Source: an uncultured virus (IMG/VR IMGVR_UViG_3300032232_000272)
Taxonomy: Duplodnaviria; Heunggongvirae; Uroviricota; Caudoviricetes
Virus record (IMG/VR): IMGVR_UViG_3300032232_000272
Length of the DNA stretch: 64,000 nucleotides
Direction: 5' to 3' (one strand)
Shown here: piece by piece, positions 4,258 through 41,012 of the stretch
How positions within the stretch are numbered: the first letter of the stretch is position 1
Layout of the letters: the number at the start of each line of letters is the position of its first letter
Program-made: the position numbers and the translations under genes
Notes under the pieces: model-generated
The model's database searches: none
The model's input: the letters and a program-made list of their open reading frames with translations, nothing else
What the model was told of the DNA's origin: nothing

Positions 4258-4667
4258 CATTAACGATTAAGCCCGTACTTACCGCCTATGTTCAACAGAC
4301 ATGGGATATGGTAAAAGACTTCTTAGACAATGGGCTGAAATGGGGTGACGATGACTACACTCTTGAGCAAGCCAGATTGTTTTTATCAAGAGGCGATTGG
4401 TTATTAATTGTTGCAGTAGATGAACAGACTAAAGTACATGGCGCAACCGCAGTAAATTTTATTAACATGCCAAATGATCGTATTGCTTATGTGATTACGA
4501 TGGGTGGTAAGTTAATTTCTAATCAAGCAACATATGAACAGTTTGCACAAATTCTAAAAGGATATGGGGCAACTAAAGTACAGGGGGCGGCTAGAGAATC
4601 AGTTGCTCGATTGTGGACTAGATTTGGGTATAAAGAACGATACAGGATCGTGGAAGCTAAATTATGA
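4254..4667 (+). CDS. Small conserved virion-module protein, possible GNAT-like fold (position of P22 gp14 / T7 gp13)
   Basis: 137 aa, ATGA overlaps at both ends; C-terminal GAARESVARLWTRFGY. Confidence 0.45.
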   Translation: MTLTIKPVLTAYVQQTWDMVKDFLDNGLKWGDDDYTLEQARLFLSRGDWLLIVAVDEQTKVHGATAVNFINMPNDRIAYVITMGGKLISNQATYEQFAQILKGYGATKVQGAARESVARLWTRFGYKERYRIVEAKL

Positions 4668-7686: not shown

Positions 7687-7698
7687 TAGGAACTGTTT

Positions 7699-13600: not shown

Positions 13601-13704
13601 ATATTGATACGGAAGACAAACGGGCAGAGATGAATCGCTTAAGAATTCTAATGTCCAAAATGACGGAAAACGTAGAAGGAATGAGGAAGTCACTGAAACA
13701 ATAG
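7699..13704 (+). CDS. Large polyvalent virion protein (zincin-like HExxH domain, LPD38-like C-terminus)
   Basis: 2001 aa; NHEALHAM...EEAIADAF; C-terminal DNFWWFKIG...RIPKPFEIG; hydrophobic N-terminal helices. Confidence 0.7.
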   Translation: MAFDIQGALKEGYSLPEIVDYLGGQKKFDVAGARSEGYSDQEILDFLSPKKKEEGIGTALRRGAEQLVSTGQTALESITKGGEEAAIRGRERQADIQARLGEGASLDRLLETYRQQGFLAAGKELAGQIPTAIAEQVPGIATTLASAGAGAAAGSVVPGVGTVIGGLAGAVAPSLIQQYGGNIQRQAEAQAATGKPLEIERGTAAVTALPQAALDVAATFIPLGGKLASSVFGPKVGQMLMQSSAEGREKLFKESLLSTVGKGTAVGIAAEVPTEVVQTMLERAQADLPVLNNEALKEYGEVAFATSLLGPIGIIGRVSNKAEAGRMLAEAQQRAVETNEPQPVILQLGYDPTVSGAGGTVNPEPFIVFPDGRVAPSEEAAFKERYGMTPQQRSVTESYASEEDRLAAEKAAYDRARKYSPTMQALDKLVEDRKAREQAQIAKVDEMKAAQSAFSTAEPVAGLYRPPTAEEIAIEEEKAKQFTNTRTVMRKTPEGIKVYEGTMNKTGTAVNVIENGKKLTFNPNNPNVVIDPTEKDIYRFETDSMADEARALSGKVEEAKIKFNKSALEFKQWLRDPKHQLKQEVFSDTIAPRKRTKEDQFRALSPKVSKGFFAKKPGEGLELDMAAEMAFDAGFLSADEFYNPDDPDGREAFSEKLKAAYDNEPVVTPRSADLYSDYETVNQQLRELEDEIERRKSTLEQESPAVVGELTSEEQEAEAARIAEASTRYEKPLPSDKFIQEGLDLAIEMRDALDKMGLKNVGLQFEDYMSRYINGELTEVTGSYFENLIKVSLASTNVKRTLNHEALHAMRDIGLFSDAEWKILSNKAKNQWIKKYDPDGSRYGSESMEVRIEEAIADAFADYRTQPANIKTIFDKIIDLMDMIRNYFAGRGFRTVDDVFQKAETGGLDGQGTLRQWEELYEIKPPKDPLTDQEITNTSWSDQIASKLFANRELPDGTNVMVRLNLNGVVKRGDQKMHLTTIHEPFSQKRDGSFSISVKNAIGYDGVVTIRNVNFIINQKARADIFKGESKLPMGGAQGEIVQGVRDLEGTRITFNPAREHLFVRVDDGRPVKYADELTMSDTDVFVRGNVEYYTPENMPQPLDDLPTAANFDGIPLSETKVKRGEIPAKKEQKELFEVPSRAKVRAPLTGVDPAYADKLLKQFTAEKATVKQRFENLKENFFERMVIGVFDEFRTIKKYSDEAYMMARMSKSIDGGLQGLLEHGEVFNDGGALNIRPGTKGLLKILEPLGTEVDQYQMWKALNRDANLPADKRSFDPELLAGRDQLSKGQLNGKSRKDIYEKALKEEQALNRSVLKVALDAGIIDKAGYDRFASDIYYIPFYKAMEDGDVQSISASSKLTGQEFSKSLKGGEKKVNDLMENVLMNWSHILSAAMKNQAANKTLEAAEDMGVAKIAKPVDGKYPPNTVKVMRDGQPVRIEIEDVGLVDAISTISYLGPKSMFLDVAKHFTNALRYGVTLSPAYKLRNLIRDSISSAAVSPLSKNLYQNVYNGLKMSDKGNPTYMSALASGGIFEMGVAHEGNQAKLIKRLIDKGVDYGTILDSPEKVKGVLQSALDWYNTQGNRFENANRLALYDKLLKEGKTHLEASFQARDLMDFSMQGQFRAVKVLSSVVPFFNARLQGLYKLGRDGITPTYRLIYNTTTGKEVTASDKQKAQRFMTISGAVMLASMALYGMYKDDEEFKKREDWDRDNFWWFKIGDTKFRIPKPFEIGALGTMAERTLEQISDDKVEGKVFFNRINHILMDTFALNPIPQMVKPMIDLYSNKDSFTGAPIVSAGMERLSAQERITNNTSGIAQALGGISAGMHKVLTFNPDAQGMSPVQIDYAIKAYLGWAGSTAVATADLAVEPFTEGTRVRKPVIDTVAMGFIKTEPETASKFMTEFYETNARVQSALADMRHYAELGDSEKVGKILRDQGDDIALAKLYDKTSKQLAEIRKQMRLIEQSKDIDTEDKRAEMNRLRILMSKMTENVEGMRKSLKQ

Positions 13705-25721: not shown

Positions 25722-25796
25722 TTGCGTTTCCTCTATAATCATATTATGCACGAACCAAACAGGTTGTACCTAATCTATTTCATGTATTGTAATCTA

Positions 25797-25814
25797 CATG
25801 GTAACGTTTCCATG
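25797..25814. promoter_or_regulatory. 18-bp near-palindrome CATGGTAACGTTTCCATG at the divergence point
   Basis: Exact reverse-complement copy at 38569-38586; core AAACGTTACC again at 26325-26334. Confidence 0.65.
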
Positions 25815-25831
25815 AATAGGTACTTTCCCTA

Positions 25832-26185
25832 ATGATTACATTCCAGTTCCCATACCCGCCATCCGTCAATTCGTACTGGCTACAGTCTGGTAAGCGTCGT
25901 TATATTTCCAAGCGGGGCGTAGAGTTTAAGAAAGCGGTGCATGAAATTTGTAAACAATCAGAAACATTTTTCGGCAACAAGCATGTTGAGGTATCCATCA
26001 TTCTGTTCCCGCGTGATAAGCGCCTCCTAGATATTGATAACTGCTGCAAAGCCATCCTTGATTCCATGAATGGGATTATGTTTGACGATGACCAGCAGGT
26101 CTGGAAGCTCACGGTAGAGCGCGGTGAAAAGATCAAGGGTGGTGGGTGTCAGGTAACCATCTCAGAATATAAGGGTAAACCCTAA
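25832..26185 (+). CDS. rusA: RusA Holliday junction resolvase
   Basis: PYPPSVNSYW, DIDNCCKAILD, DDDQQV motifs. Confidence 0.9.
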   Translation: MITFQFPYPPSVNSYWLQSGKRRYISKRGVEFKKAVHEICKQSETFFGNKHVEVSIILFPRDKRLLDIDNCCKAILDSMNGIMFDDDQQVWKLTVERGEKIKGGGCQVTISEYKGKP

Positions 26186-26216
26186 TACTGTATATCCATA
26201 CAGATTCATGTAGAAT
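26186..26216 (+). promoter_or_regulatory. LexA (SOS) box overlapping a sigma70-like promoter
   Basis: CTGTATATCCATACAG at 26188-26203; CTGTAT-17 bp-TAGAAT (26211-26216). Confidence 0.75.
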
Positions 26217-26221
26217 TATAT

Positions 26222-26309
26222 GGACGACTATTCTCCATGGCCGTCTTCATTTGTGATTTTCCTTGTATGTTTGGGGGTTGGCTTTCACGTGGCTGACCCC
26301 CTTTTTTTT
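26222..26309 (+). ncRNA. Candidate ~88-nt small RNA ending in an intrinsic terminator
   Basis: Promoter/SOS box upstream; 5' hairpin with UCUCC loop; terminator stem 26274-26300 followed by T9. Confidence 0.5.
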
Positions 26310-26418
26310 GGTGATTCGTAACATAAACGTTACCTTAACCCCACTTAATGTAATAAATACGATACATTGTTGCACTGCACCATTTATCGTAGTAGACTAT
26401 GGTTTTAAGGAGAAAACC

Positions 26419-26598
26419 ATGTTCAAACGCTATGCAGAAATCGCAGACCAAACTGTTTCAAACCTTGTAGACCTAGCACCTAAAATGCCTACGCCCGCCG
26501 AATACATTGACGCAGCGATCCAGGCAAACAAGTTATGGGCAAAGGTTGTAGAAGATTCTTTGGCTACCATGACCAAGGGTGTTTACAACTTTAAATAA
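26419..26598 (+). CDS. 59-aa amphipathic protein, possibly phasin-like
   Basis: AAGGAG RBS; helical Ala-rich sequence; TGTTGCACTGCACCA upstream at 26368-26382. Confidence 0.5.
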   Translation: MFKRYAEIADQTVSNLVDLAPKMPTPAEYIDAAIQANKLWAKVVEDSLATMTKGVYNFK

Positions 26599-26660
26599 TC
26601 TGTGGTAAATTAGTAGCACTAGGAGATTGTGGAAAATCTCCTTGTGTTACAATATCCGAA

Positions 26661-26966
26661 CAAGCCCCGTAGTGTATGGGGTCTATACCAGTATCTTTTG
26701 AGTTGGTTGGTTCGGTGACAACACAAAGGGTATTTTCCACATAGACCTCATACCTTACGGGGTTTTGCTTTTCTAGTGCCTGATCTGTTGGACGGGGAAT
26801 ACCACACCAGCGACAGATCTTGTAAGCGGACTGGGGGTAAGTAACTGAAACACCGCACAAAGGGATGGCGAAGGAAGAGTCCCTGTTACGCACGTCTTCC
26901 GGGTGCTGTGGCTCCGATTGGAAACGGCTGAAGGACGCATCAGGTGGGCAAGGTGCGTCCACCAAA
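26661..26966 (+). ncRNA. Candidate large structured RNA / leader
   Basis: Extended -10 TGTTACAAT at 26645-26653; at least six helices and three loop-distal complementarities; no credible ORF. Confidence 0.6.
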
Positions 26967-27015
26967 TGGAAACAGAGACTGTGTTAGACATATACAGAGA
27001 TATACAGGGAGGGGC

Positions 27016-27204
27016 ATGGAAGTCCGAAAAATGTTGCAAAAACAAATAGGGATAATCCCTGATAGCGTAAAAACTGGATCCGTGCAAAATGTAATCCAGT
27101 GGAAAGAAAAAGCAGAACGGGCAACGAAATTATTAAAAAACCCTAGAGCGTCAGTCCGTGAAATGCAAGACGCACTAGAACAATTACAGAGGATAAGCAA
27201 ATGA
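27016..27204 (+). CDS. Hypothetical protein (62 aa)
   Basis: GGAGG RBS before ATG 27016; stop overlaps the ParB-like gene. Confidence 0.55.
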   Translation: MEVRKMLQKQIGIIPDSVKTGSVQNVIQWKEKAERATKLLKNPRASVREMQDALEQLQRISK

Positions 27205-28007
27205 ACTTGAAGTTAAGCGATATACGCGTTGATGGAGATTTACAAGTAAGGGCTACGATCAATGATGCAGTTGTCTCAGATTATTACGACATCCTACGAG
27301 AGGGTGGCAAGCTCCCTCCAGTTATTGTGTTCTTTGACAGTGCGCAGTATCACCTGGCTGATGGATACCACCGCTTCCATGCTCACAAGTCTGCGGGCTT
27401 GGCTCTCATTGAAGCAGATGTCCGTGAAGGAACGAAACGGGACGCAATGCTCTACGCCTTGGGCGCTAATGCAGAACATGGTTTCCGTAGAACTGCACAA
27501 GATAAGCACAAAGCAGTCACGATTATGCTCAATGATATGGAGTGGGGTGAGTGGTCTGACCGAGAGATTGCAAAGCAGTGCAAAGTATCTCATCCATTTG
27601 TTTCAAAGGTTCGCAAAGAACTAGGTGCTGATACCGACGCCGTAAAGTACAGCCGTAACGGTAAAGAGCAGACCAGAAAGAAAGCAAAAAAAGATGCGCA
27701 GAGTGAAGATCAATCTGAGCCAAACCCTCTTGAGACTAAGGTTCAGGAACTTGCAACGGAGTATGCTGAACTGGCGGAAGAGAAGGCAAAACTGGAAGAC
27801 AGGATTGCGGTCGCCGCAGTGGATGCGACAGAGGAAGAAAAGAATCAATACGCTGAAACTTTGGAGTCTCTCCGCTCACAAGTTAAAACTTTGGAGGTTG
27901 AGAACAGAGCGCTAAAGGCGACTCGCTCGGCATTACAAGACGAGAACAATCAGTTGAAGAAGCAAGTGAATTATTGGAAAAAACAAGCACAGAAAGGGAC
28001 TAAATGA
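27201..28007 (+). CDS. ParB/Srx N-terminal domain protein with HTH and coiled coil
   Basis: LPPVIV...LADGYHRFHA ParB box; WSDREIAKQCKVSHPFVSKVR HTH. Confidence 0.8.
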   Translation: MNLKLSDIRVDGDLQVRATINDAVVSDYYDILREGGKLPPVIVFFDSAQYHLADGYHRFHAHKSAGLALIEADVREGTKRDAMLYALGANAEHGFRRTAQDKHKAVTIMLNDMEWGEWSDREIAKQCKVSHPFVSKVRKELGADTDAVKYSRNGKEQTRKKAKKDAQSEDQSEPNPLETKVQELATEYAELAEEKAKLEDRIAVAAVDATEEEKNQYAETLESLRSQVKTLEVENRALKATRSALQDENNQLKKQVNYWKKQAQKGTK

Positions 28008-28206
28008 TTCGGTCAAACATTGAGCCGGCAGATTACGAACAGGCACAGATCATCTTACAAAGCACGATGGATTGCTTGGGCAGTAACGAGCCGACTGAAT
28101 TTCAATCGTTAATCATTGATAACTTAAAGAGAGTCATTGACGAATTTAGACTAACCATGACGCATTAAAGCGACGCTGGGCGCTTTCCCAGCAGATAGGA
28201 ATACAA

Positions 28207-29691
28207 ATGTTAGAGTTGCGCGAGCATCAGCTCGAAGTAGTGGAGAAATTAAACGAAGGTTTTGCCAACGGCCACACCAGGCAGTTGTTGTATGCACCAA
28301 CAGGATTTGGTAAGACCGAGGTAGCAATGGCTATTATGAAAGCCGTTGCTGACAATTATCAGAAGACCGCCATGGTCTTGGATCGTATCGTCTTGGTCAA
28401 TCAAACAAGTATGCGTCTTGCCCGTTATGGTATTGAGCATGGCGTGATGCAATCAGGGCACTGGAGAGAGCGCCCATACGAAAAGATCCAAGTCTGTTCG
28501 GCCCAGACCCTAGAAAAGCGTAAGAATACACCAGACATTGATCTATTGATTATTGACGAGTGCCACGTCCTGCGCCGTTCTACTGTTAACTTCTTAAAAG
28601 ATAACCCCCAAATCAAGGTCATTGGATTGACCGCTACGCCATTCACCAAAGGTTTGGGTGATATCTATACCCATATCATTGGCGCATCTCCTACGGGCGA
28701 TCTGATTGAAAAGGGATGGCTTGTCCCGCTTAAAGTATTTATCGCTAAAGAGATTGATATGACAGGCGTTAAGAAGATTGCGGGCGAATGGTCTGCTGAC
28801 CAAGTATCTGAACGTGGTATGCGTATCGTTGGGGATGTCGTATCTGAATGGGCTAAGAAAACTTATGAGATCTTTGGTAAGCCCGTTAAGACTATCGTAT
28901 TCTGCGCCGGCGTAGATCATGGCAAAGAGTTAGCAAAGCGATTTGAAGATGCAGGATTTAACTTTAAGTCAATCTCCTACAAAGAGGACGACGACTACAA
29001 GAGAATGATTATTGAGGATTTCTCCCGACCTGATACCGATATCAATGGGCTGATTGCTACAGACATTCTGACCCGTGGATTTGATGTTACCGATGTAATG
29101 ATTGGTGTATCAGCAAGACCCTTCTCAAAATCATTCTCTTCCCATGTTCAGCAGATGGGGCGCGTAATGCGTCCGCATGAGGGCAAAGAGTATGGGGTAT
29201 GGCTAGATCACTCTGGCAATTACCTTCGATTCAAAGACGATTGGGATCGGGTGTTTGACTATGGCGTTGACTCCCTGGATGGTGGTCTTGAAGAGAAGGC
29301 TAAGAAAGAGCCGACTGAGAAAGAAAAAGTAGAAGCCAAGTGCCCATCTTGTGGTGCGCTATGGATTTGGAAGTCGGATGAGTGCGGTGAATGCGGGCAC
29401 ATCAAGAAGAAGATCGCACAGATCCAAGTATTGGATGGTGAACTGCAAGAGTTAGCCGTTGCCAATTCCAAACTAAAGATTGATAACCGACAGTTTTTCC
29501 AAGAACTTATGCACTACGCCACATCTCGTGGATACAAGGAGGGTTGGGCAGCTCACAAATATAAAGAGAAATTCGGAGTCTTTCCTAAGAACATACCAAA
29601 AGAAATGAAGCCTCCGTCGCCACAGACATTGAGTTGGATTAAGAGTCGCATGATCGCATACAGTAAATCAAAACAGAGGATAGCAGCATGA
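28207..29691 (+). CDS. Superfamily 2 DExH helicase with Zn ribbon
   Basis: APTGFGKT, DECH, LTATP, QQMGRVMR, CPSC...CGEC. Confidence 0.9.
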   Translation: MLELREHQLEVVEKLNEGFANGHTRQLLYAPTGFGKTEVAMAIMKAVADNYQKTAMVLDRIVLVNQTSMRLARYGIEHGVMQSGHWRERPYEKIQVCSAQTLEKRKNTPDIDLLIIDECHVLRRSTVNFLKDNPQIKVIGLTATPFTKGLGDIYTHIIGASPTGDLIEKGWLVPLKVFIAKEIDMTGVKKIAGEWSADQVSERGMRIVGDVVSEWAKKTYEIFGKPVKTIVFCAGVDHGKELAKRFEDAGFNFKSISYKEDDDYKRMIIEDFSRPDTDINGLIATDILTRGFDVTDVMIGVSARPFSKSFSSHVQQMGRVMRPHEGKEYGVWLDHSGNYLRFKDDWDRVFDYGVDSLDGGLEEKAKKEPTEKEKVEAKCPSCGALWIWKSDECGECGHIKKKIAQIQVLDGELQELAVANSKLKIDNRQFFQELMHYATSRGYKEGWAAHKYKEKFGVFPKNIPKEMKPPSPQTLSWIKSRMIAYSKSKQRIAA

Positions 29692-29861
29692 GAAAATACA
29701 TAAAGAAAACACATTACGAAATGACCTACGATGAGATCGCCAAAGAACTAGGCGTGAGCAGAGAGGCAGTCGCCGAAGTTTGCAAAAGGGCAGAGGCTAA
29801 AGTTAAAGAAGCCCTTAAACAAAAAGGGATAGACCCTGATGATCTATATGGTGAACTATGA
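29688..29861 (+). CDS. Sigma70 region-4-like HTH protein (57 aa, not in ORF track)
   Basis: MTYDEIAKELGVSREAV; ATGA overlaps at both ends. Confidence 0.65.
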   Translation: MRKYIKKTHYEMTYDEIAKELGVSREAVAEVCKRAEAKVKEALKQKGIDPDDLYGEL

Positions 29862-31384
29862 ATTACTTATCCGTATGCTCAGGAGTTGAAGCCGCCACAG
29901 TAGCGTGGCATTCAATGGGATGGAAGCCCGTAGGTTTCTCGGAGATTGAGAAGTTTCCATCAGCAGTTTTACAACATCATTACCCTCAAATAAAAAACTA
30001 TGGGGATATGACTACATATAAGGAGTGGGATATAAATGACACAGTTGGACTTTTGGTCGGAGGGACTCCCTGCCAATCATTCTCAGTCGCAGGACTACGC
30101 AAAGGACTTGAAGACCCCAGGGGAAACCTTGCCCTTACCTATGTTGGAATACTTGACCGCTTTAAACCCAAGTGGTTCATTTGGGAAAACGTGCCGGGCG
30201 TCCTCAGTTCAAACGGTGGACGGGACTTTGGTTCCTTCCTTGGGGCGGTGGCAGAATGCGGGTATGGGTTCGCATACAGGGTGCTTGACGCTCAATACTT
30301 CGGAGTTCCCCAAAGACGCAGACGTGTGTTTGTTGTCGGATGTCTTGGAGATTGGGAATCTGCCGCAAAAGTTTTATTTGAGCCCGACTGCTTGCGCGGG
30401 GATACTCCGCCGAGCAGAGAAAAGGGGAAAGAAACTCCCGGAGTTACTACAAATCGCCTTGTCGCATTCGGTGAATACTCAGACGATGGAGTCGCCAGCA
30501 CCATAAAGGCACGGGACTGCAAAGGGCATACAGATCTAATCGTTTATGAGACCCATCCCGCAGACTCAAGAGTCAAAGATATGGGTGATGTATGTCAAAC
30601 AGTAACCTCAAGATGGGGCACAGGTGGTGGAAATGTGCCATTGGTTCAGTCTGTTGGGTTTACGCAGTGTGATGCAGCAAGAGATGTTGGTATAAATGTA
30701 AGCCCGACCCTCCGCTCTGGCGGTAATGGCGGGTATCCTAGCCATTCTGTTGCCTATGGGTTTGAACCAGGCATCTCTAAAAGGGAAGGGAATCCAAATA
30801 GATTTTCTGAAGAACTTTCCCCAACACTAAGGGCGCAGATGGGAGATAACCAAGCCGCAGTCGCTTATTCCATCCGTGAAGACGCAAAAGCAAACAACTT
30901 TAGTGCTACCCCGTTACATGTAACGCCCGCTCTCCAGGCACTGCGTCCGTCAGTTCAATCTCACCATGCTCAGACTTTTATCGTGGATCGTGCAGCTTTT
31001 AATCAGGGAGAGAACGCACAATATGAGCCTAGGATTGAAGAGTCCGACACCATGTCTACTTTGGTAGCAAGAGGCCCGCATGCCGTTGCGCAGTCCTTCA
31101 ATGTTAATGCTAGACCTGATGAGATGAAGTTGGAGACGGAGATCTCTGGCACATTAACTTCTAGTCAAAACGCTGGTCTGTTTCAAGACATGGCAGTCCG
31201 CCGTCTTACTCCCGTGGAATGCGAAAGACTTCAAGGGTTTCCTGATAACTACACTCAGATCCCATGGGGCAAAGGTGATACTCCTGATAGCCATCGATAC
31301 AAGGCTATGGGTAATTCAATGGCAGTCCCATGCATGCAGTGGATTGGTGATCGTATTCAAAAGGTAGAAAATGGACTTCTTTAG
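29858..31384 (+). CDS. DNA (cytosine-5)-methyltransferase with long modular variable region
   Basis: SVCSGVE (I), GGTPCQSFS (IV), ENVPG (VI), PQRRRR (VIII), RRLTPVECERLQGFP (IX), YKAMGNS (X). Confidence 0.95.
   Translation: MNYLSVCSGVEAATVAWHSMGWKPVGFSEIEKFPSAVLQHHYPQIKNYGDMTTYKEWDINDTVGLLVGGTPCQSFSVAGLRKGLEDPRGNLALTYVGILDRFKPKWFIWENVPGVLSSNGGRDFGSFLGAVAECGYGFAYRVLDAQYFGVPQRRRRVFVVGCLGDWESAAKVLFEPDCLRGDTPPSREKGKETPGVTTNRLVAFGEYSDDGVASTIKARDCKGHTDLIVYETHPADSRVKDMGDVCQTVTSRWGTGGGNVPLVQSVGFTQCDAARDVGINVSPTLRSGGNGGYPSHSVAYGFEPGISKREGNPNRFSEELSPTLRAQMGDNQAAVAYSIREDAKANNFSATPLHVTPALQALRPSVQSHHAQTFIVDRAAFNQGENAQYEPRIEESDTMSTLVARGPHAVAQSFNVNARPDEMKLETEISGTLTSSQNAGLFQDMAVRRLTPVECERLQGFPDNYTQIPWGKGDTPDSHRYKAMGNSMAVPCMQWIGDRIQKVENGLL
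30036..30506 (+). CDS. Nested alternative-frame polypeptide, M.EcoHK31I-beta-like
   Basis: 156 aa in the +1 frame with AGGAG 10 nt before ATG; WQNAGM...LSDVLE...FYLSPTACAGILRRAEKRGKKLP. Confidence 0.6.
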   Translation: MTQLDFWSEGLPANHSQSQDYAKDLKTPGETLPLPMLEYLTALNPSGSFGKTCRASSVQTVDGTLVPSLGRWQNAGMGSHTGCLTLNTSEFPKDADVCLLSDVLEIGNLPQKFYLSPTACAGILRRAEKRGKKLPELLQIALSHSVNTQTMESPAP

Positions 31385-32189
31385 ATTTGCAGAACACCAT
31401 GGGTTAATTATTGATAACCTAGTCTCTGATCGTTGGGTTCGTGTGCCTACGATTGACCATCCAGGCAAACGCAATGGCGCTTATATCTTCAATGGATCCA
31501 ATGGCGCAGTGCAGAATTGGGCCTTGCATGAGAAACCCATAACATGGCGGGATAAAAACTATAAGCATGACCCTCAATTACAAATCAGGGTAAAAAAATC
31601 CCAAGACGATCAGGTTGTCCGGCAAGATAAGGCAGCAAAGAAGGCGGGATGGATACTCAATAATGCAGTCAAATCTACCCATCCATATCTCGCTAAGAAG
31701 GGATTCCCTGATGAGAAAGGGTATGTATGGGAAGGTCTATTGGTAATCCCTATGCGGGTGGATGGCAGTCTGGTTGGATGCCAATTGATCGATGCCAATG
31801 GCACTAAGAAATTCTTGTATGGGCAGAGAACCAAGGGCGCGTCTGCTTGCTTTGATAATAAGGGCAGCATCATTCTCTGTGAGGGATACGCTACCGCTTT
31901 ATCAATTCGTAAAATCTTAAAGAAAAGCATGACCCGCTACTGTATTCATGTGTGTTTTTCTGCGGGCAATTTGGTTGAAGTAGCCAAGTCGTATCCCAAT
32001 TGCGTGATCGTGGCAGACAATGATCCTGTTGGCATTCGATCGGCTAAGAAGACGGGTCGTCCGTATTGGGTATCCCCAAACCAGGGGGAAGACTTTAATG
32101 ATTATGAGTTAAGGGTAAACCCTAAGACTGCTAAAGACTTACTGAATCTGATCGGTGGGAGAACTGATAAAGACACTCTCACGGACTAG
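31371..32189 (+). CDS. Toprim-domain primase
   Basis: HPYLAKKG, LVIPM, LCEGYATA, VADND, DFND. Confidence 0.85.
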   Translation: MDFFRFAEHHGLIIDNLVSDRWVRVPTIDHPGKRNGAYIFNGSNGAVQNWALHEKPITWRDKNYKHDPQLQIRVKKSQDDQVVRQDKAAKKAGWILNNAVKSTHPYLAKKGFPDEKGYVWEGLLVIPMRVDGSLVGCQLIDANGTKKFLYGQRTKGASACFDNKGSIILCEGYATALSIRKILKKSMTRYCIHVCFSAGNLVEVAKSYPNCVIVADNDPVGIRSAKKTGRPYWVSPNQGEDFNDYELRVNPKTAKDLLNLIGGRTDKDTLTD

Positions 32190-33669
32190 ATAAGTTCCGT
32201 CTGCTTGGGATAGATCCCTCATCAAATCATCTGCCAATAAAAAGGATTGGACGGGATCCCCGATAACTTCTACGGAGATCTCTACCTTGCCCGCTTTCTC
32301 ATCCGAGTCTTTCAGATAAATGATTGTTGCGTTCATAAACTAATCTCAAACCATGACCCTCAATAAATAGATGGGGGAATGCGTTCACGAGTCTCCGTAA
32401 GTTATCTTGGTCTGCCAGGAGGGCCGCCTTACCCAATTGTCTCGCAAAACCCCCTAGTCTGTCCATTCTATCAACAGATTGGATTAGCGTGGTTCTATCT
32501 GTCAATATCCTCATACAAAACATAATCCTACGATCAGGATGCCCATAAAAAAAGTGCAAACAATATCGTCCATCATTTGAATATTCTCCTCTTGGTTAGT
32601 CTTTCGCATAATGCTTGCACATCAGGCGGGCTATCTTTGTCCACCTCATGGCAAGCGTATACGATATTAGGTTCGTAGATCTCTTTCACCACGACATAAA
32701 GGGCTAGCGTTCCTATTACAACTGCCCAAAATGTCAAGATCTTAGTCCACATATACATCCTCAATCTCATAATCAGTGATGTCATCATCACATAATTCCC
32801 AAGGGTAATCCAAAACTGCCATAGCAGCCTCCTCCTCATTGGGTGCTATGACTGTGATGGTCTTTCTGAATGATCCCGTAATGACAACTTCGTATTCCAT
32901 GCTTTTCTCCTTAAGTAAATGCTTAATAAAATAATCGTGTCCGGCTACCCATTCCATCCGTTTCTCCTCATCTCAGCGTTTAGATCAGCGTATTGTTGAT
33001 GCGTAAAGTCTAGATTCCTCGTCAATACTTCCTTAAATCCCTCGTATCTGGAGTCGTGAATGCAAGCCTCAATCGCTAGGATGGCGGTCTGCAAATCGCG
33101 TAGTCGGCTCTTTTCTGCATGGAACTGTGGCTTTCTACGCATCATATTCCCCTAGAAAATATGTTCCCAAGATCGTGGTGCAAACCAATCCAATCGTGGC
33201 TAGCCAATTGTCTTTCGTCATCACTATGGCTACACATACCATAAATAATAGGACTATTACCCCCCAAAAAATAGCATCGATGCCTCTCATTTAATTCCCC
33301 TTTTAATAAACTGTTTAGAAAAATAGACCTCTCCCTGGAACTCGCTTGGAACTAAGTAAGCCTCGTATTCGGAGAGAAAATTCTCCTCCTCTCCCTCTTC
33401 AAGTAATAACTTAGCCTTGATCTCATGGATTATGGTGCATTGATACTCATCCTTACCCTTGAGAAAGTCCCCAAATTCAAAATTACCAAACCAAACTTGC
33501 CTACGCATTTTCCATCTCCTCTACATCATCCACTCGCCATGCGCCATAATCCATAAAGTTCCATTGGGGATCAATGTAGCCTCCCTCTACCAATTTCTTT
33601 GCCTCTTCAGGGCTTTCTGCCTCCACCTTGGCAAACTCATACACAATTTGTCGTGCAATAACTCTATAT

Positions 33670-34272
33670 TTAGGCATTTTTAAACTCCTCTTGTTTTTCT
33701 AAAAGTGCGTCCAATTCATTGAGCAATTCTTGTCTCTTGGATAAGTCTTTCTCTTCTTCTACCAAGTCTTTTAATTCCTCAATGCGTTCTTTGCGTTCCT
33801 CATTTTCCCAATCTGCCATGCCAATAGAAATACCCTCAGCATCGTCAATAATGCGTGGAATATGATCCCTGACCCATTCAGAATCGCCTGTAATATCATA
33901 GTAATCGTCTGTGGAATTGTCCCAATATCCACAAAACATCATGCCTGGTTCGTAGTAGGTAGCCTCAATTTCAAAACCGAGATCCGATAATTTTTCGTAG
34001 GCTGCGGTAGGCGGAGACCACGCACTACAAAAAGTAAAACCAAGTTCATGCTCTTTATCTCTAAAGATTGCACCCTGATCTAAACCCACATCCCATTTTG
34101 TTCCCCAATTACTAAGCCGAAAACCATACCAAGCCTCGGTCTCCAACATTTCAAGAGGCACGGGGATAAATTCATCTAACAATGTTCCTGTTTGTAATGC
34201 TTTCTTAGCCCGCTCAATCATGGATGAATCGGTATGGGTAAGTGTGATTGTGTTATTGCACCAATTAGGCAT
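33670..34272 (-). CDS. DUF1281/YubB ferredoxin-like domain protein
   Basis: MPNWCNN, NWGTKWD, SAWSPP, YYEPGMMFCG motifs. Confidence 0.75.
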   Translation of the reverse strand: MPNWCNNTITLTHTDSSMIERAKKALQTGTLLDEFIPVPLEMLETEAWYGFRLSNWGTKWDVGLDQGAIFRDKEHELGFTFCSAWSPPTAAYEKLSDLGFEIEATYYEPGMMFCGYWDNSTDDYYDITGDSEWVRDHIPRIIDDAEGISIGMADWENEERKERIEELKDLVEEEKDLSKRQELLNELDALLEKQEEFKNA

Positions 34273-35516
34273 TTGCGTTCTCCTACCAATTTGCTAGTTT
34301 TTTGAATGCCTTTTTATACTCGGCATGGTTCTTAAATGATCCGACCACCATACAATGCTCTAGGAATCTATCGTCCATAAAATACCCTTGTGCCATCTCG
34401 TTATGAGATTTGCCAAGATCCTTATAAGATTCACCCTCGTATGCGTCTGCAATAACAAACTTCAAACTTTCCCAAAGATCGTGATCGTATCCATTCGGGC
34501 ATATATCTACCCCGTCTATCCTCCCGTATCCGTCATAGATACCCTCTACCTTTTTGCCGTCAGGATAAAGAACAACAACAGTGTGTAGTTTTGGATACCC
34601 TACACAATCTGCGACCACTGGTAAATGCGTCTTTGCACAAGTTTTAGAAAAAAATCCCATAACATTCTCCTCTGTTAAATAATTGAACAATCTCGGTATG
34701 ATTTACCGAGTTCGTATTCCACTACTTCAATGCCATCTACATCACCAAACATAAACCAATCAGGTTCACACTTGTATTGCTTGCCATGCTTTTTCAAGCC
34801 CGCTAAAAGAATGGCATGGGCCTTCGCCTCTGTCTCAGCGAAAGCCTCAAAACTAAAGTTACGGGAATCGTAATAAGCCTTATAGATTTTCAAGATAATT
34901 TCTCCGTTAAATTGCCCTCGTTCCACATAGCCCTAGCGAAATTAATGACATCATCACTGATTGGAAAATCATAACTCTCAGCGTGATGTTCAATGACATC
35001 GATTGGGCATTGATCTGCCGTAGGAAAGTTATCCCCCCAACTTTGACCCCATGATTGTTTTGGGGTTGGGGTTTTCACATAAGAATCTGTGCCATCAATA
35101 CCCATACTTCTATACAACATGGCATCAATGCAAGATAAGCCCAAATAAAGGTTGTTGGTAATACGACCAATAGCCTCTTCACGACTGCAAGCATTAATCT
35201 CAATAGCCTCATCAATGTCTGCCTCTGCAATATCTACGACTAAATTAAATTTCATTTTGATCTCCTCTTAATCTAATAAAACTGTGCCATCTGAAAGAAT
35301 GGCAGACTGAACAAATGAATCCGCCAGGATGCCGGATTCCGCTAAAGACTCATCAATCTTGACGCAAAATCTTGCAAGCCTTGGCAACAAAATGTCTAAA
35401 TTGGTTTTGTCATCTACATCTACATAAATTGCTATCTGCATTTGATTCTCCTCTGTTAAAAAGCGTGGGCCTTAATAGCAAACCATGACCCTCAATAACT
35501 AATCACTACATGAGAG

Positions 35517-35545
35517 AGATTACTCTCACCTATTGCAAAAGTAAA
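35517..35545 (-). promoter_or_regulatory. Leftward sigma70-like promoter
   Basis: TTTACT-17 bp-TAATCT on the minus strand, directly after a terminator. Confidence 0.45.
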
Positions 35546-35569
35546 TAAAACCCGACTAAAAAAGTCGGG
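35543..35569 (-). terminator. Intrinsic terminator
   Basis: CCCGACT/AGTCGGG 7-bp stem followed by TTTTATTT on the minus strand. Confidence 0.65.
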
Positions 35570-36134
35570 AATTATTCCAGGTTAGGGTAAACCCTTAGTT
35601 TTTGCTGCGGTGTATTTCTACCCCAAAAGCACCTAAAAAGCGTATAGATTCGGGCTCGTTTGCTAGTGCCTCCCGTATCTTTTCGGCTATCTGTTCGGGT
35701 GTGTGTCGTGGGTTTGCCTCCTCCAATCGGTGGCGGGCTATTGCCTTCGGAACGGGTCGGGAGTTGATAAAGAATTGGATCATTTGACCTCCCAATTCTC
35801 ATAAAGGTCTTTTATTTTGTTTAGCGTCTCTTCTGCGTGTGAGTCCATTTCATAATCGTATTCTTTGGGGTTATGTTTCGCCCCCTCTGCCTTTGCTAAT
35901 TTGTAAGCCAATTGCTCTAATAAATGATCTTTTCCATCTAAAAAATGGCGATACGATTTTGAGTGAATCCAATTAAATGCCTCCTGAGATGTAAATCCCG
36001 AATCTATAAGCCCATTCATAATGGCATTAGCAACAATCCAAGCGGGGCGATCATAAGAGTAAGCATTCTCAAATAAACCTCTGCCCGTAAAATCAATAAA
36101 TTCTGCTTTCATGGTTTAATTCTCCTTTGTAATT

Positions 36135-36185
36135 GACTTAGACCCCTTGACGGGGTTTCGGCTCATAAAGCCTCATCAGTAAGCC
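36135..36185 (-). ncRNA. Type I hammerhead ribozyme
   Basis: Minus strand GGCUUA-CUGAUGA-GGCU(UUAUG)AGCC-GAAA-CCCC(GUCAA)GGGG-UC-UAAGUC: complete core and three stems. Confidence 0.92.
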
Positions 36186-37768
36186 TAGCGATTTGTAGAC
36201 CACCATTCATAGAGTTTGCGTTCCATTTTTTCTAAATCTTTGCTTTTGTATTCTGAACGATCAAGTATTAAGTAATACTCGCCTCCCTCTACAATTTCTA
36301 TGAAATAGCACTCGTCATAAACTAAAACGGGATTTGTGGCATATTCTGAGTCTATCGCATTCACTTTTGACCCATCAGGGAAAAAGGTGCGAGTCTTTAC
36401 AAAATCGTTAAATGCTTTTTCTTCTGCGGTTGTTCTGATCCGTTGGACTTCCATATTGTCAAAAGTCCATTGTTGATAATTGCCCTCTAGCATCCGATTA
36501 AAAGCCGTTGGGAAGTTGATCCAATCGCCTACGGCTCTGTCTCTGTCGGTAATTACTGTGTCGTCTGTATCGTCAAAAACCCCCGTTTCTGAGTATTTGT
36601 CTCGGAAGGTTTGCGGGCTATGTATTTCTACAATTTCGCCTCCATTCCAAGAAAATAAAAAAAGCGGTTCGGTGTATTGGCTAAGATCTAAAGTTGTGTT
36701 GAGTTTCATTTGTTTGTTTTCCTTAAAAGTTCTCAAAAATAATCTCTTCGTTATCATTAACGAGGGCATACCAAAAGCCATTGCGACCAATATATTCAGT
36801 GATTGCCTCCGCTTTATCTTCCATAGTGGAAAATTCGTCTAAGTCCGCATCTACCCCATAAGATTTTAAAAACTCATCTAGCGAACATTCCGAAAAATCG
36901 CAACATATTGCGATCGGGTCAAATTCCAAATCCTCCCCCATCTCCTCTAGATAATCAAAAAGTTCTCCCAATCCCTCATAAGAAAAGTTGTCGGGTCTAA
37001 TTTTTTGCATTTCATCTCTAAAAATGTTTAATGTGATGGTCTGTTTCATTTGCTTAGTTTCCTTTTAAGTTATTTGATTCAATAAAAGATAAAATTTCGT
37101 CTAGGTTGTCCGACTCTAAAATTGCCTCTAGGGTCTCGCCATAAATACCTTTGGCTAGAATGAATTGTTTCCCGCCCGCCTCTCTCATATCGGGGTCGGT
37201 ATAGTCAAACCAAATACGAACGATCTCCTCGCCCTCTAGTGGGTAATCCATACTAGGGCAAGAGTCGTTATGCCAAGAGTTATCCTCCCATCCTTTGCCA
37301 AGGTTGGGAATAACATAATCAAAGTTTGGGAATTCGTTTAAGTAATTCGCAAGTGATCTATTTTTATAAATTGCCATTTGTTTAATCTCCTAATAATATT
37401 TAGATGCTCTAAATTCTTTTGCGTCTTGTTCGTGACCCGTTGCGACTAGCCAAAAATATTCGCATAAGTCTTGTGCTTTTTCGGGAGTTTGTCCCTCGCT
37501 AATGGCTAGATCAAATACAAGTTTTGCGATTTTGTCGGCATTTTTAACAGTGAAATTTTTCATTTGTTCATTCTCCTATTGTGTTTGAGTTCTGCGTTGT
37601 ATTGCATTACCACGATTAAACCATAAAACACAATGCAAGTGTAATACTTGACTAGATTCCAGGGGTATTAGGTAAAAAGTATCAATGCAAAAAAGCCCGC
37701 AATCGTTCCTATTGGATGGTTTGGGATCTGTTCCACTAAGGGAAAGATACAAGAGAATCAGCCTGGAA

Positions 37769-37799
37769 TACTGTGTATTTATACAGTGTATGCTATCCT
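37769..37799 (+). promoter_or_regulatory. LexA (SOS) box plus extended -10 upstream of terS
   Basis: TACTGTGTATTTATACAGT at 37769-37787; TGcTATCCT at 37791-37799. Confidence 0.7.
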
Positions 37800-37843
37800 C
37801 TAGTCTGAGATTCCTAAACCATACCTATTATTAAGATAAAGCA

Positions 37844-38509
37844 ATGAAAGTGCAGAGATTAACGAGGGCACAAGCAAAAGAGTTAATTAAAAAAACTCCA
37901 ATGGATGTGATTCTGTGCAATGAGAATAAGCGATTAACCCACAAGCAGAAAGAGTTTGCTCGCCATATTGCATTAGGTGAGACTAAGACAGAGGCATATA
38001 GGAAAGCATATAAAGGGGGAAAGGCATCCGTGAATAAGAAAAGAGACGGGAATAGAGGTTCTGATCTAGCAAAGCATGAGGGGATTAGCAGGGAGGTAGA
38101 TGCGATAAAGGCGGGGATTGAGTTCCAGAGACTATATTCCGAGGCACAATTGAAAGCCCTTGTTGTCGCACAACTAACAAAAGAGGCACTAAACCCCGAC
38201 AATCAGGGCTCTACAAGGGTCAATGCCCTCAAGACTCTGGGCACAGTTGCTGGTGTGGACGCCTTCATTCACAGAACCGAGACTCGTGTCATTAAGGATA
38301 GCGAGACACTCAAGGCGGAACTCATGGCAAAGATTAAAGAGGCGATTAGTGATAAGGGCAGAACCATTGACGCAGATGCCGAGGCACTATTGAACGAGAT
38401 CAGCACCCGCCCGCCATCGATGCCTGGGGACGCAAGGCCCACCGAGGGGCAGCCCCCAAATTCTGAGATCGCTGAGGCTGACATACTGTATAGTATTCCA
38501 CCCAAATAA
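37844..38509 (+). CDS. terS: Terminase small subunit (putative)
   Basis: LTHKQKEFA...TEAYRKAY HTH and RVNALKTLG motif; upstream of terL. Confidence 0.65.
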   Translation: MKVQRLTRAQAKELIKKTPMDVILCNENKRLTHKQKEFARHIALGETKTEAYRKAYKGGKASVNKKRDGNRGSDLAKHEGISREVDAIKAGIEFQRLYSEAQLKALVVAQLTKEALNPDNQGSTRVNALKTLGTVAGVDAFIHRTETRVIKDSETLKAELMAKIKEAISDKGRTIDADAEALLNEISTRPPSMPGDARPTEGQPPNSEIAEADILYSIPPK

Positions 38510-39139
38510 TTATCAAATTTTTCATAATCCCTAAAAAAAATGTATATACATCATAGACTTCCAGCCCTCATGGAAACGTTACCATGAAGAATTGGGACAA
38601 AAAGGGGGTGGGGGGTATCATTTTTTGGGTACGACAATACTCAATGTGGGTATGGAAATCGGCCCCCTTGTGTTTTGGAATGAAAGGGTAGGGGGGGTAT
38701 ATATTTTGACGGAATTGATTTTTTTGACATGGTTCTTTGGTCTACTCGCCTTAGTAGCATTCCTCTTATGGTTGGGAGATAGATAATGATTGAGATATTA
38801 GTAGCCTATATCCTGGTGGAGGGGGGCGCGGGGGTTGAGTGGTGGCTGCTTTATACGGCGGTCTTTGGATATAAAGCGTATGTCTTATGGGAGCAACATA
38901 AAGTAAAGAGTGCGTTGATTAAGTCTTTAGGAGGAATAGATGGAAGTAAAAAATGAAGCAGCCCTTAGTGAGAATGGTATAGCCGTTACGGTGGAAAAGG
39001 AGCCGCGGGCGATTAAGTTTATAGCTTGGCTTAGTTTTGAGGATTGGATTGCGGATGATCTAATGCATGAAGGCAGGACGCGCGGCGCCCATAATCGGCG
39101 CTGGATGCATAAGAAATTGGATGAATTTATTGATAGTCT

Positions 39140-39361
39140 ATGACAGAGAAGCAAGCATCTATATATCGGTTTATCGATGAGTGGTGGAAGCGAAACGGCT
39201 TTGCACCATCTATTGACGACATCATGCAGGCGACAAACGACAGAAGTCGGAGCTCAGTCCATCATGTCATTATTAGGCTATGTGAGATGGGGGTCTGTAA
39301 ACGGATCCCAGGCAAGAAGAGCGTTAGACCCTCTTATATGAGGATTCGGGACGTTGTATGA
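39140..39361 (+). CDS. LexA-like DNA-binding-domain-only protein
   Basis: MTEKQASIYRFI...GFAPSIDDI...SRSSVHHVIIRL wHTH; no peptidase domain. Confidence 0.75.
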   Translation: MTEKQASIYRFIDEWWKRNGFAPSIDDIMQATNDRSRSSVHHVIIRLCEMGVCKRIPGKKSVRPSYMRIRDVV

Positions 39362-39524
39362 ATGAGGAGCTAATTAAGTTGTTTAACCACAGGACTTTGA
39401 CGGAAAAGGAAATCCGAGCCTGTTTTGAGAACCTAACGCATACGCGCCCAGACGGGAGTTATTACACGGCGGATGAGCTGATGATTAACTTTGCCAGAGC
39501 CATTGAGCAGTTACACGGAATAGA

Positions 39525-41012
39525 ATGAATTTAGAAGAATTAATGAAAAGCCTACCGGCAACGGATCAAGTCAATATGACTGAGCTGATGCAGGAGTACT
39601 TGGACTCTATTAAGCGGGAAGAGAACCAAAATAGCTTTTTGAAGTTTGTACATACGATGTGGCCCGGCTTTATTGACGGCGCCCACCATAAAATCATGGC
39701 TCAAAAATTTGAGGAGATAGCCAATGGAACATGTAAGCGTCTTATTATTAATATGCCTCCCCGCCATACTAAGTCTGAGTTTGCTAGTTACATGCTTCCT
39801 GCGTGGTTCTTGGGCAGATTCCCTGGAAAGAAAGTTATTCAGACTTCTAATACAGCTGAACTTGCTGTGGGGTTCGGTCGTAAGGTTCGTAACCTCGTGG
39901 GCTCCGAAGCCTATCAATCTATCTTTCCTGACGTCGGACTTCAAGCGGACTCTAAGGCGGCTGGTCGTTGGGCTACAAATAAAGGCGGCGATTATTTCGC
40001 TATCGGTGTCGGTGGTACGGTCACGGGTAAAGGTGCGGATCTCCTCATTATTGACGACCCTCATTCGGAACAAGAAGCAGCCATAGCTGCCTCTAACCCA
40101 GAGGTCTACGATAAAGTCCATGAGTGGTACTCATCAGGCCCACGCCAGCGTCTACAGCCAGGCGGTGCGATTGTAGTCGTTATGACCCGTTGGTCTAAGC
40201 GAGACTTAACTGGCAGGATCTTACAATCGGCAGTAGAGCGGGATGGCGACAAATGGGAAGTCATTAGTTTTCCAGCAATCCTGCCGTCAGGTAACTGTTT
40301 ATGGCCGCAGTTCTGGAGTCTTACTGAACTAACCGCCCTTAAGGAAGAACTCCCTGTTTCCAAGTGGAACGCCCAGTATCAGCAAGAGCCGACATCGGAA
40401 GAAGGTGCTCTAGTCAAAAGGGAGTGGTGGCAAATTTGGGAGGGAGAAAAGCCTCCTGTCTGTGAATTCATTATCCAGTCTTGGGATACCGCCTTTACTA
40501 AAAATGAGCGAAGCGACTATTCGGCATGCACGACTTGGGGCGTCTTTTATTTAAACGAAGACGAGCGCGAGCCCAATGTTATTCTTTTGGATGCCTTTAA
40601 AGAGAGGTTAGAATTCCCAGAATTAAAACAGCGGGCGTTTGAAACCTATAAAGAATGGGAGCCAGATGCATTTATCGTGGAAGCAAAAGCTGCTGGAAGC
40701 CCATTAATCTTTGAATTGCGTAGAATGGGCATACCCGTATCAGAGTTTACACCTACGAGGGGCAATGATAAGATTGCGAGATTGAACGCAGTAACAGATT
40801 TATTTGCTTCTGGCAAGATCTGGGCGCCACCCAAAAGGTGGGCAGAAGAGGTTATAGAAGAGATGGCAGCATTTCCTAATTCGGATCACGATGACTTAGT
40901 GGACTCATCCACCCAAGCATTGCTCCGCTTTAGAAAAGGTGGATTTGTAAGACTACCCTCAGACGAGGAAGATGAACCAACGTATTTCAAACGCAAAGCC
41001 GCGTACTACTAA
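39525..41012 (+). CDS. terL: Terminase large subunit
   Basis: INMPPRHTKS, LIIDDPH, MTRW, QSWDTA, HDDLVDS. Confidence 0.95.
   Translation: MNLEELMKSLPATDQVNMTELMQEYLDSIKREENQNSFLKFVHTMWPGFIDGAHHKIMAQKFEEIANGTCKRLIINMPPRHTKSEFASYMLPAWFLGRFPGKKVIQTSNTAELAVGFGRKVRNLVGSEAYQSIFPDVGLQADSKAAGRWATNKGGDYFAIGVGGTVTGKGADLLIIDDPHSEQEAAIAASNPEVYDKVHEWYSSGPRQRLQPGGAIVVVMTRWSKRDLTGRILQSAVERDGDKWEVISFPAILPSGNCLWPQFWSLTELTALKEELPVSKWNAQYQQEPTSEEGALVKREWWQIWEGEKPPVCEFIIQSWDTAFTKNERSDYSACTTWGVFYLNEDEREPNVILLDAFKERLEFPELKQRAFETYKEWEPDAFIVEAKAAGSPLIFELRRMGIPVSEFTPTRGNDKIARLNAVTDLFASGKIWAPPKRWAEEVIEEMAAFPNSDHDDLVDSSTQALLRFRKGGFVRLPSDEEDEPTYFKRKAAYY

Follow-up and report, generated by a model that had tools for sequence, protein, structure and literature searches.

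The locus and its site-free zone

The 64,000-nucleotide stretch analysed here, which we call the window, is IMG/VR record IMGVR_UViG_3300032232_000272 (Caudoviricetes) and is nearly the whole genome, about 65 kb, of an uncultured freshwater podovirus-like phage from lake water. It contains a zone, at 30998..38574, that is free of the words AGCT, GTAC and ACGT, and this zone, its edges and what they may say about the entry of phage DNA are our subject. Genes were called as greedy open reading frame (ORF) picks and annotated with PHROGs and Pfam. Inside the zone, at its right end, is a terS-like gene (37844..38509, plus strand, 221 residues; phrog_51, E 6e-5), and 60 to 70 nt past its stop codon lies the sharp edge of the zone, referred to below as the cliff. 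To its left is a block of about 18 small ORFs without assigned function (32299..37752, minus strand), several of them strongly acidic, which read away from the cliff and presumably form the early operon. On this block converges a plus-strand operon (25832..32189) for RusA, a ParB-like protein, a helicase, a sigma-region-4-like helix-turn-helix protein, a C5 cytosine methyltransferase and a Toprim protein. Right of the cliff are small ORFs, the large terminase gene terL (39525..41012, plus strand), which starts the conserved structural module and has a normal site density, and genes for the portal, a GroES-like protein, the head and the tail fibres. The 22 public sequencing runs found to hold DNA of the window are labelled freshwater metagenomes, and the closest cultured phages by terL, at 48-59% identity, are DSL-LC04, 023Pt_psg01, the pelagiphages HTVC027P and HTVC023P, and the cyanophages MinM2 and Pag-Yong1.

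A sequence-only reading of the window had reported, from a manual scan, that AGCT, GTAC and ACGT are absent from 30998-38574. A direct count bears this out, with 0 copies of each in the zone, totals of 238, 175 and 97 in the whole window, and the flanking sites where that reading had put them: 30994 and 39023 for AGCT, 27647 and 38629 for GTAC, and 30322 and 38576 for ACGT. The rate in the rest of the window predicts 34 AGCT, 26 GTAC and 13 ACGT for the zone, and an order-2 Markov model fitted within the zone predicts approximately 14, 15 and 14-17, respectively. A synonymous-codon shuffle, which preserves every protein and the zone's own codon usage, predicts 20.7, 15.7 and 13.0, and the lowest sum of the three words in 1000 such shuffles was 31 (observed, 0). 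The depletion thus exceeds what composition and coding would give, the comparison by which that reading had proposed to check its claim. The probability of an equally long gap anywhere in the window is 2.6e-11 for AGCT, 1.6e-11 for GTAC, 3.6e-4 for ACGT and 1.0e-4 for GCGC. Bins of 2 kb outside the zone hold 4-18 AGCT, 3-14 GTAC and 0-11 ACGT; the counts are zero at 32-38 kb and return immediately after 38.57 kb. Mutational decay of methylated sites was rejected as a cause because it would act genome-wide.

Other words fall into different classes. The sequence-only reading had listed GCGC, CCGG, GGCC and CGCG as scarce in the zone, and this holds regionally for GCGC alone, which occurs 5 times against 22 predicted from the rest of the window and is missing from 33541-38826. 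CCGG, GGCC and CGCG, like TCGA, are low across the whole window (46-52 copies per 64 kb) and make up a separate tier that is avoided genome-wide. GATC, described as common there, is in fact enriched, with 46 copies against 35.3 by codon shuffle, a number reached in 1 of 300 shuffles. The interrupted palindrome GTNAC occurs twice in the zone, where codon shuffling predicts 7.2 and other parts of the window would give 16-26. Depletion also extends to asymmetric words: GAAGC (0 against 15.4 +/- 3.1 by codon shuffle) and ACAGC (0 against 6.9) are absent from the zone, and four such 5-mers are missing on either strand over 8.8-12.2 kb, namely GAAGC (29923-38955), ACAGC (27649-39852), GCTCC (27311-38890) and ACCGT (30213-38988).

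The two edges of the depletion differ in form. On the right, all word gaps end together at about 38.57-39.0 kb, and site density is normal already in the first 500 nt beyond the cliff. On the left, the limits are word-specific and lie between 27.6 and 33.5 kb (GTAC at 27647, ACGT at 30322, AGCT at 30994 and GCGC at 33541, with AGCT sparse back to 25.3 kb). The core zone (30998..38574), in which GCGC is also absent from 33542 on, is therefore preceded by a ramp (25816..30997) of partial, word-dependent depletion, with 5 AGCT against about 22 at the rate of the rest of the window and no GTAC from 27648 on. Both the sharp edge after terS and the fading to the left had been noted from the letters and are real, the fade running across 26-31 kb with its own limit for each word. 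The further claim that a methyltransferase marks the other edge is true of AGCT and ACGT, whose left limits fall inside that gene, and fails for GTAC and GCGC, whose limits are elsewhere.

Immediately past the cliff are the G-run repeats (38592..38707, plus strand), two 34-nt direct repeats in which G-runs are followed by TAT..TTTT. This region may be a late promoter or a packaging signal. Strains differ in G-run length here (deletions of 1 nt at 38615, 38619 and 38691), and the repeats are conserved as non-coding motifs in relatives; the ORF at 38592-38786 that overlaps them is probably not a gene.

Depletion in related phages

The comparison across the family used IMG/VR loci with a terL 53-100% identical to that of the window. 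A word was called purged when its observed/expected ratio was at most 0.15 with a Markov expectation of at least 4, and 23 loci with at least 3.3 kb upstream of terL were scored. Upstream of terL, 62 of 355 palindromic 4-mers were purged and only 5 of 2760 non-palindromic ones; downstream, the figures were 13 of 296 and 0 of 2280. This preference for palindromes upholds the view that the depletion reflects selection on restriction-type words rather than composition. Nineteen loci had 3 kb or more on each side of terL; in 14 of them at least one palindrome was purged upstream yet present downstream (31 word-cases), and the opposite direction was seen in a single word-case, TCGA in locus L074. 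The abundance of GATC also varies among relatives: some (L080, L063, L065) have 7-12 copies per kb ahead of terL, and others purge it there or genome-wide.

Six large related genomes all have a cliff, with differing sets of purged words. AGCT, ACGT and GCGC are purged in G002; AGCT, GTAC, ACGT and GATC in G004; and GTAC, GCGC, CCGG, GGCC and CGCG in G003. The locus L061 purges GTAC, ACGT and GCGC and has AGCT at 6.5 per kb. Asymmetric words are affected here too, as CCGC (2 against 42), GCAGC (0 against 18) and GGATG (0 against 13) are depleted in the zone of G002, and ACTGG (2 against 22) in that of G004, relative to expectation from the rest of each genome. Several of these four words are sites of type IIS enzymes. 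A cluster of G/C-runs, either G-runs followed by TAT..TTTT or the complementary C-runs, is found no more than about 50 nt from the cliff in 6/6 genomes, and most ORFs to the left of the cliff read away from it, as the sequence-only reading had described for the window. Going left, the first 7-12 kb from the cliff have almost no sites, after which the count per kb returns to the far-field rate, abruptly in G003, G004 and G005 and gradually in the window and G002. Palindromes of 13-17 nt, specific to each lineage, recur 7-10 times in the zones of G002 (18165-26381), G003 (53606-60104 and 603-739) and G006 (704-3879) and once at the cliff, and may be early operators or promoters.

The genes within these zones are largely unrelated. 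When 11 window proteins from 25.8-38.5 kb were searched with tblastn, no match was found to the zone genes of G002, G003, G005 and G006. The zone of G004 is syntenic with that of the window, and its conserved helicase and Toprim genes are purged too. The site content of terS varies with its position: where the gene lies left of the G/C-run element it is free of sites (0 against 9.2 expected at the far-field rate in the window, 0 against 8.8 in G004), and where it lies right of the element it is not (9 against 6.7 in G002, 8 against 4.3 in G005 and 9 against 8.3 in G006). Because zone genes are unrelated and the site count of terS changes with the side of the element, the purge follows map position and not gene content. 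Selection is also ongoing. The strain G001, 97% identical to the window, has an equally site-free zone that includes its own 1.2-kb replacement cassette, and the 110 substitutions that separate the two in the zone create 0 sites against 4.3 expected (P = 0.013), which is the mark of continuing purifying selection against sites.

It could be supposed that the zone is an imported mosaic, assembled from cassettes recently acquired from phages that avoid these words genome-wide, so that the pattern records ancestry and not local selection. The lower G+C content of the zone (0.39-0.43 against about 0.46) fits such an origin, as do the replacement of cassettes between strains at 35.0-37.7 kb, an AGCT-rich block within the otherwise purged zone of G005 (described below), and the genome-wide avoidance of single words in some relatives (GATC in G003, TCGA in L067 and L083, AGCT in L046). 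However, no examined relative avoids the full set of words genome-wide, the same map position is purged in all six large genomes despite their unrelated zone genes, and conserved genes inside the domain, such as the helicase and Toprim genes of G004, are purged as well. The substitutions between strains that avoid making sites are likewise at odds with pure ancestry. A mosaic origin accounts for details rather than for the pattern itself, and we consider it improbable. Taken together, the evidence supports regional anti-restriction selection well: left of the G/C-run element, which lies just upstream of the packaging and late operon, selection against host restriction sites in these phages is much stronger over 8-13 kb than it is elsewhere in the genome.

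Methyltransferase, early genes and DNA entry

The C5 cytosine methyltransferase gene of the window (29858..31384, plus strand) encodes 508 residues and scores 193 bits with PF00145 (cut-off, 22). The parts that align to M.HhaI are residues 3-162 and 438-500, with both the N-terminal and the C-terminal blocks of catalytic motifs present, and the variable region between them is 275 residues long, compared with about 90 in M.HhaI. Multispecific phage C5 methyltransferases of the SPR/phi3T kind carry several target-recognition modules in an enlarged variable region. The sequence of the window enzyme fits such an arrangement, and homologs match 27%, 46%, 64%, 78%, 91% or 100% of its variable region, in blocks and at high identity, as if recognition modules had been swapped among phage methyltransferases. 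The homologs carry generic names only, from which no specificity could be inferred. Over 580 bp, the gene has 79% DNA identity with a methyltransferase gene of an uncultured spring-water phage record. That gene is the record's sole match to a 20-kb query, which suggests that the methyltransferase gene is mobile.

The sequence-only reading had made this enzyme part of the strategy: the leader of the genome would avoid sites, and an early C5 methyltransferase would methylate the DNA that enters later. In favour of this are the place of the gene in the ramp, the left limits of AGCT and ACGT inside it, and the block-shared variable region that would suit several recognition modules. Its distribution speaks otherwise. 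Among the five zone-bearing relatives G002-G006, 0/5 match PF00145, PF01555 or PF02086, three families of DNA methyltransferases that control genomes did match, and in the syntenic G004 the helicase gene is followed directly by Toprim with no methyltransferase between them. A homolog was found in 3 of 80 related loci (L006, L064 and L065); AGCT is tolerated in the zone by two of these three and by many loci that lack the gene, and tolerance does not follow its presence. The apparent mobility of the gene also counts against the proposal. Moreover, methylation by the phage itself in the previous cycle would already have protected the progeny DNA along its whole length. The depletion is independent of the phage methyltransferase, and staging by methylation is very improbable, the least likely of the accounts considered here.

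What then makes a site in one part of the genome worse than a site elsewhere? If the whole genome entered at once, a site would be equally lethal anywhere. A purge that is confined to one domain, edged by a landmark and independent of the genes it covers implies that sites are not equivalent, and staged entry is favoured because it is a known way to make them unequal. We therefore think it probable that entry in stages, with a first-entering leader as in T5 or T7, best explains the regional purge. In such a scheme, the cliff end would enter first with the terS side leading, and the leader would lie exposed for minutes during inward transcription of the minus-strand operon by host RNA polymerase. 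Restriction would be neutralised by the small early products, many of them very acidic, or by other functions expressed at that stage, and the remaining DNA would follow with the aid of internal ejection proteins. A site would be lethal in the leader and tolerated anywhere else. A physical end near 38.55 kb, with this DNA entering first, as the earlier reading had proposed, is plausible; we infer the end itself, the order of entry and the ability of the early proteins to counter restriction.

The layout of the genome matches this model in having a tip of approximately 0.75 kb, an inward-reading operon of small acidic proteins and virion proteins of the ejection type. The last are encoded at the left end of the window (4664..13704, plus strand), where a putative DNA-ejection protein, an SLT transglycosylase protein and a 2001-residue LPD38 protein continue the structural module from right of the cliff. 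The 2001-residue protein (7699-13704) combines an LPD38 polyvalent-protein domain with a segment like gp82 of mycobacteriophage L5 and may be an injected anti-defence protein. A further set of genes for PAPS-reductase-like, two glycosyltransferase-like, Methyltransf_24 and ParB-like proteins (15702-16550, 21700-24056 and 27201-28007) could serve in the modification of DNA or of the cell surface.

Within the presumed early operon, an acidic protein of 108 residues (36723..37049, minus strand) has a net charge of -21, an isoelectric point of 4.1 and 684 uncharacterised homologs. It is at most a candidate early anti-defence protein. Its predicted fold, made from an alignment of 43 sequences chosen from the best 120 of the 684 matches, has a mean pLDDT (predicted local distance difference test) of 66, and Foldseek matched it to no PDB structure at E <= 0.001. 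A second acidic protein of 200 residues (33670..34272, minus strand) has a net charge of -26, a homolog in G004 at 42% identity and a weak resemblance to DUF1281_C. Two more acidic products of the operon are encoded at 34890-35255 and 37054-37377. Searches of the ESM Atlas with both proteins returned only unnamed phage clusters; in the clusters nearest the 200-residue protein, 28-31% of the members carry DUF1281_C. The promoter-proximal end of the operon is a hypervariable stretch (35051-37740) in which cassettes are swapped or deleted in strains from other samples, at 35051-35228, 35783-36133, 36187-37045, 37065-37561 and 37670-37740. In the cultured relative Pag-Yong1 (L099), a gene annotated as S-adenosylmethionine (SAM) lyase lies at 14611-14925, near the start of the equivalent minus-strand early block. 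A promoter and terminator scan of 25-40 kb gave 23 promoter-like sites against 29.7 in shuffles and thus no excess.

Alternatively, the early regulon may simply need to stay intact, with no staging of entry, while the remainder of the genome is shielded or mended in other ways, for instance by the co-injected LPD38 protein or by recombination through Erf, the exonuclease and RusA. The domain does coincide with the non-late transcription units, the cliff being the start of the late operon, and the recurrent palindromes in the zones of G002, G003 and G006 are distributed as early operators or promoters would be. The phage also has genes for recombination and for a polyvalent virion protein. There is also a precedent, in that ligase-dependent repair gives PhiKMV-like phages broad resistance to DNA-cutting defences, according to the available part of bioRxiv 10.64898/2026.09.21.753257. 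Yet the neighbouring minus-strand block of small genes, at 15.7-25.75 kb, shows no depletion, and in the window and G004 the cliff lies beyond the plus-strand terS and not at the early promoter region. A genome cut at hundreds of places at once across its other 50 kb could hardly be put together again. We regard protection of the early regulon without staging as unlikely, if less so than a mosaic origin.

Several observations weigh against staged entry of a first-entering leader. Entry driven by transcription, in the manner of T7, could not cover the whole domain, because transcription of the replication operon in the ramp (plus strand) runs toward the cliff. No early protein matched a known anti-restriction family in PHROGs or Pfam, nor did the 108-residue protein in Foldseek against the PDB or either of the two acidic proteins in the ESM Atlas. 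The purge limited to the upstream side is absent from 5 of the 19 relatives (L008, L020, L052, L064 and L067), and there is no site-free zone in the cultured relatives DSL-LC04 and Pag-Yong1; in the latter, GTAC is absent from all 41.5 kb examined and no regional purge is seen. In G005, a 2-kb AGCT-rich block stands right beside the cliff (15 sites, minus strand, 34-36.2 kb, L100-L102). GTAC, ACGT, GCGC and GGCC are still absent from this block and AGCT is absent from the next 6 kb, and it looks like a recent import from an AGCT-tolerant lineage. Read data were available as assembled contigs of the 22 runs. The four runs compared with the window showed no positions at which molecules start or stop, as is usual for contigs, and in all four contigs bridge 38.5-38.7 kb; such bridging is expected from concatemers or collapsed terminal repeats and is therefore neutral on defined ends. 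The large contigs of relatives are unbroken at the cliff. Contig ends do occur 0.2-1.25 kb upstream of terL in 26/66 cases, against 5/66 at the same distance downstream, and at least 7 contigs start at the C-run motif, with ends spread over several positions rather than at one homologous point. This excess could equally be explained by breaks at a boundary between conserved and hypervariable sequence or at homopolymer runs. The terminase, which carries a Terminase_6C domain, has among its nearest characterised relatives (at most 32% identity) those of T1-like phages and cluster B mycobacteriophages, both of which are headful packagers. This kinship is mild evidence against fixed ends, and an argument made in the accessible part of PMC12455610 is that positional avoidance of sites would not arise under headful packaging.

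Two further observations bear on the genome end. A long direct terminal repeat over the domain, as in T5, was rejected, since contig depth in run X1 shows no two-fold excess (means of 28.6 and 27.4 for contigs inside the domain and 27.3 for one outside, contig depth being a coarse measure). G002 is classed as a terminal-repeat genome on account of a 123-bp exact overlap 26 kb from its cliff, which is probably an assembly overlap given the assembler's k-mer size.

The limits of the domain coincide with an inverted repeat, the best of the region, with arms of 23 nt that are 96% complementary and share an exact 19-nt core. The left arm, S1 (25793..25815), falls in the intergenic space from which the minus-strand block and the RusA operon diverge and marks the outer limit of the depletion. 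The right arm, S2 (38568..38590), has a near-palindromic core whose central ACGT (38576) is the first site at the cliff. The depleted domain, zone and ramp together (12.8 kb), is thus the segment bounded by the repeat. A third copy of the 12-nt repeat core is found inside a structural gene (1134..1145, plus strand). G001 carries the same pair, and G004 has a related perfect palindrome at the cliff, at the left limit of its zone free of AGCT and GTAC, and at a third place. The repeat sites could be a packaging signal for this type of terS, an operator, a stop signal or a recombination site.

Contigs of runs X1 and X2, from two studies, join 38590 to an exact match of 25763-25792 on the minus strand. 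This is the junction expected from inversion of the segment at about 25.8-38.6 kb. One recombinant junction was seen and the reciprocal one was not, its left site lying outside the compared stretch. An assembly artefact seems unlikely because the 23-nt repeat is shorter than the 31-letter words from which the contigs are presumably built. Cutting by the host at AACGTT followed by rejoining was rejected as the source, as the window has 11 copies of AACGTT, not just those at the repeat. The ORFs that were scanned with PHROGs and Pfam include no resolvase, invertase or integrase, several of the small ones having no match at all. In IMG/VR, the flank of the right site was found only in G001, in the parental order, and a search of JGI metagenome contigs with the 19-nt core gave four loci, one of them related and in the parental order and three unrelated. 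Some genomes may carry the domain flipped, which would place its site-bearing end beside the cliff and is a further difficulty for a leader that enters from there.

A more specific form of staged entry can be put forward tentatively, and we think it rather doubtful as a whole. The segment at 25.8-38.6 kb, a fifth of the genome, would be a first-step-transfer module that arose independently of T5. One palindrome, next to the end that enters, would mark the packaging signal recognised by this type of terS, and the other would be the inner limit or stop. Among the acidic early proteins would be one that inhibits type II and IIS restriction generally, and the two sites would recombine, giving both orientations in the population.

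Comparison with known systems

Earlier work on T5, by Davison and Brunel in 1979, is cited in PMC10644984. T5 and its relatives are restricted only when sites fall in their first-step-transfer DNA, and the protection of the remainder is unknown, as far as the consulted sections of PMC10644984 go. The likeness to Tequintavirus would lie in a terminal segment with small early genes for host takeover, through which alone restriction acts, sites elsewhere being tolerated in vivo (same sections of PMC10644984), and in the zones of G003, G004 and G005, which are step-like at 8-12 kb as a discrete first step would produce. The differences are considerable. The virion of the window is unrelated (no T5 match seen) and belongs to a podovirus-like phage of about 65 kb, the domain has no long terminal repeat, and many words of 4-5 bp are purged here, in place of a few 6-bp sites.

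In T7, whose leading region is that of gene 0.3, about 850 bp enter without transcription, and the distance of approximately 0.75 kb from the cliff to the early promoter region resembles this figure. In the T7-like Murciavirus, only motifs in the first-injected region set sensitivity, and selection is concentrated on that segment, in the portion of PMC12455610 that was available. That region is highly variable and rich in anti-defence genes (same portion of PMC12455610), and its early genes, which read inward from one end, have a parallel in the presumed early operon of the window, which reads away from the cliff. Unlike T7-like phages, the window has no phage RNA polymerase among the ORFs scanned, and part of its domain is transcribed toward the presumed end. 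Murciavirus also differs in that a single type I motif was followed in cultured phages, whereas here a purge of many type II- and IIS-like words is read from uncultured genomes.

A third parallel is found outside phages. The leading regions of conjugative plasmids carry anti-defence genes, orphan methyltransferases and ParB-like genes. They are also depleted of restriction targets, as the cited part of PMC12455610 has it, and so share with the domain described here, if it does enter first, the depletion of first-entering DNA. The difference is that plasmid DNA enters single-stranded from oriT and is not that of a phage.

These comparisons bear on what the pattern could be used for. The idea that restriction acts on first-injected DNA has so far rested on few cultured phages, namely T5 and its relatives and, in 2025, the T7-like Murciavirus, and a freshwater phage family now shows the same logic in its sequence, with at least 8 words purged over 8-13 kb in lineage-specific sets. 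If the entry reading is true, then the polarity of injection and the size of the exposed leader would be predictable from sequence alone, the purged words would be a readout of the restriction enzymes in uncultured hosts, and the small proteins of the domain would be prime candidates for inhibitors of type II restriction. The corresponding function of T5 is described in the consulted sections of PMC10644984 as still unidentified. Should the first-step module exist in the form proposed above, cliff-and-plateau statistics would give polarity, first-step size and host restriction repertoire for many uncultured phages.

The avoidance of palindromes across whole phage genomes reflects the same kind of selection, and the window itself avoids CCGG, GGCC, CGCG and TCGA in this way. 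It differs in having a second tier of words that is avoided in only one cliff-edged domain. Analyses of genome-wide avoidance have ignored the location of sites, according to the part of PMC12455610 consulted, and a caution follows for such statistics in that they miss the strongest signal. We found no paper describing this pattern for this phage family, which is no proof of absence. The principle is already known and was restated experimentally in 2025. What is added here is an unrelated, uncultured and widespread family in which it can be followed, a purge that takes in many type II- and IIS-like words, a landmark at the cliff, and a domain bounded by repeats that may invert.

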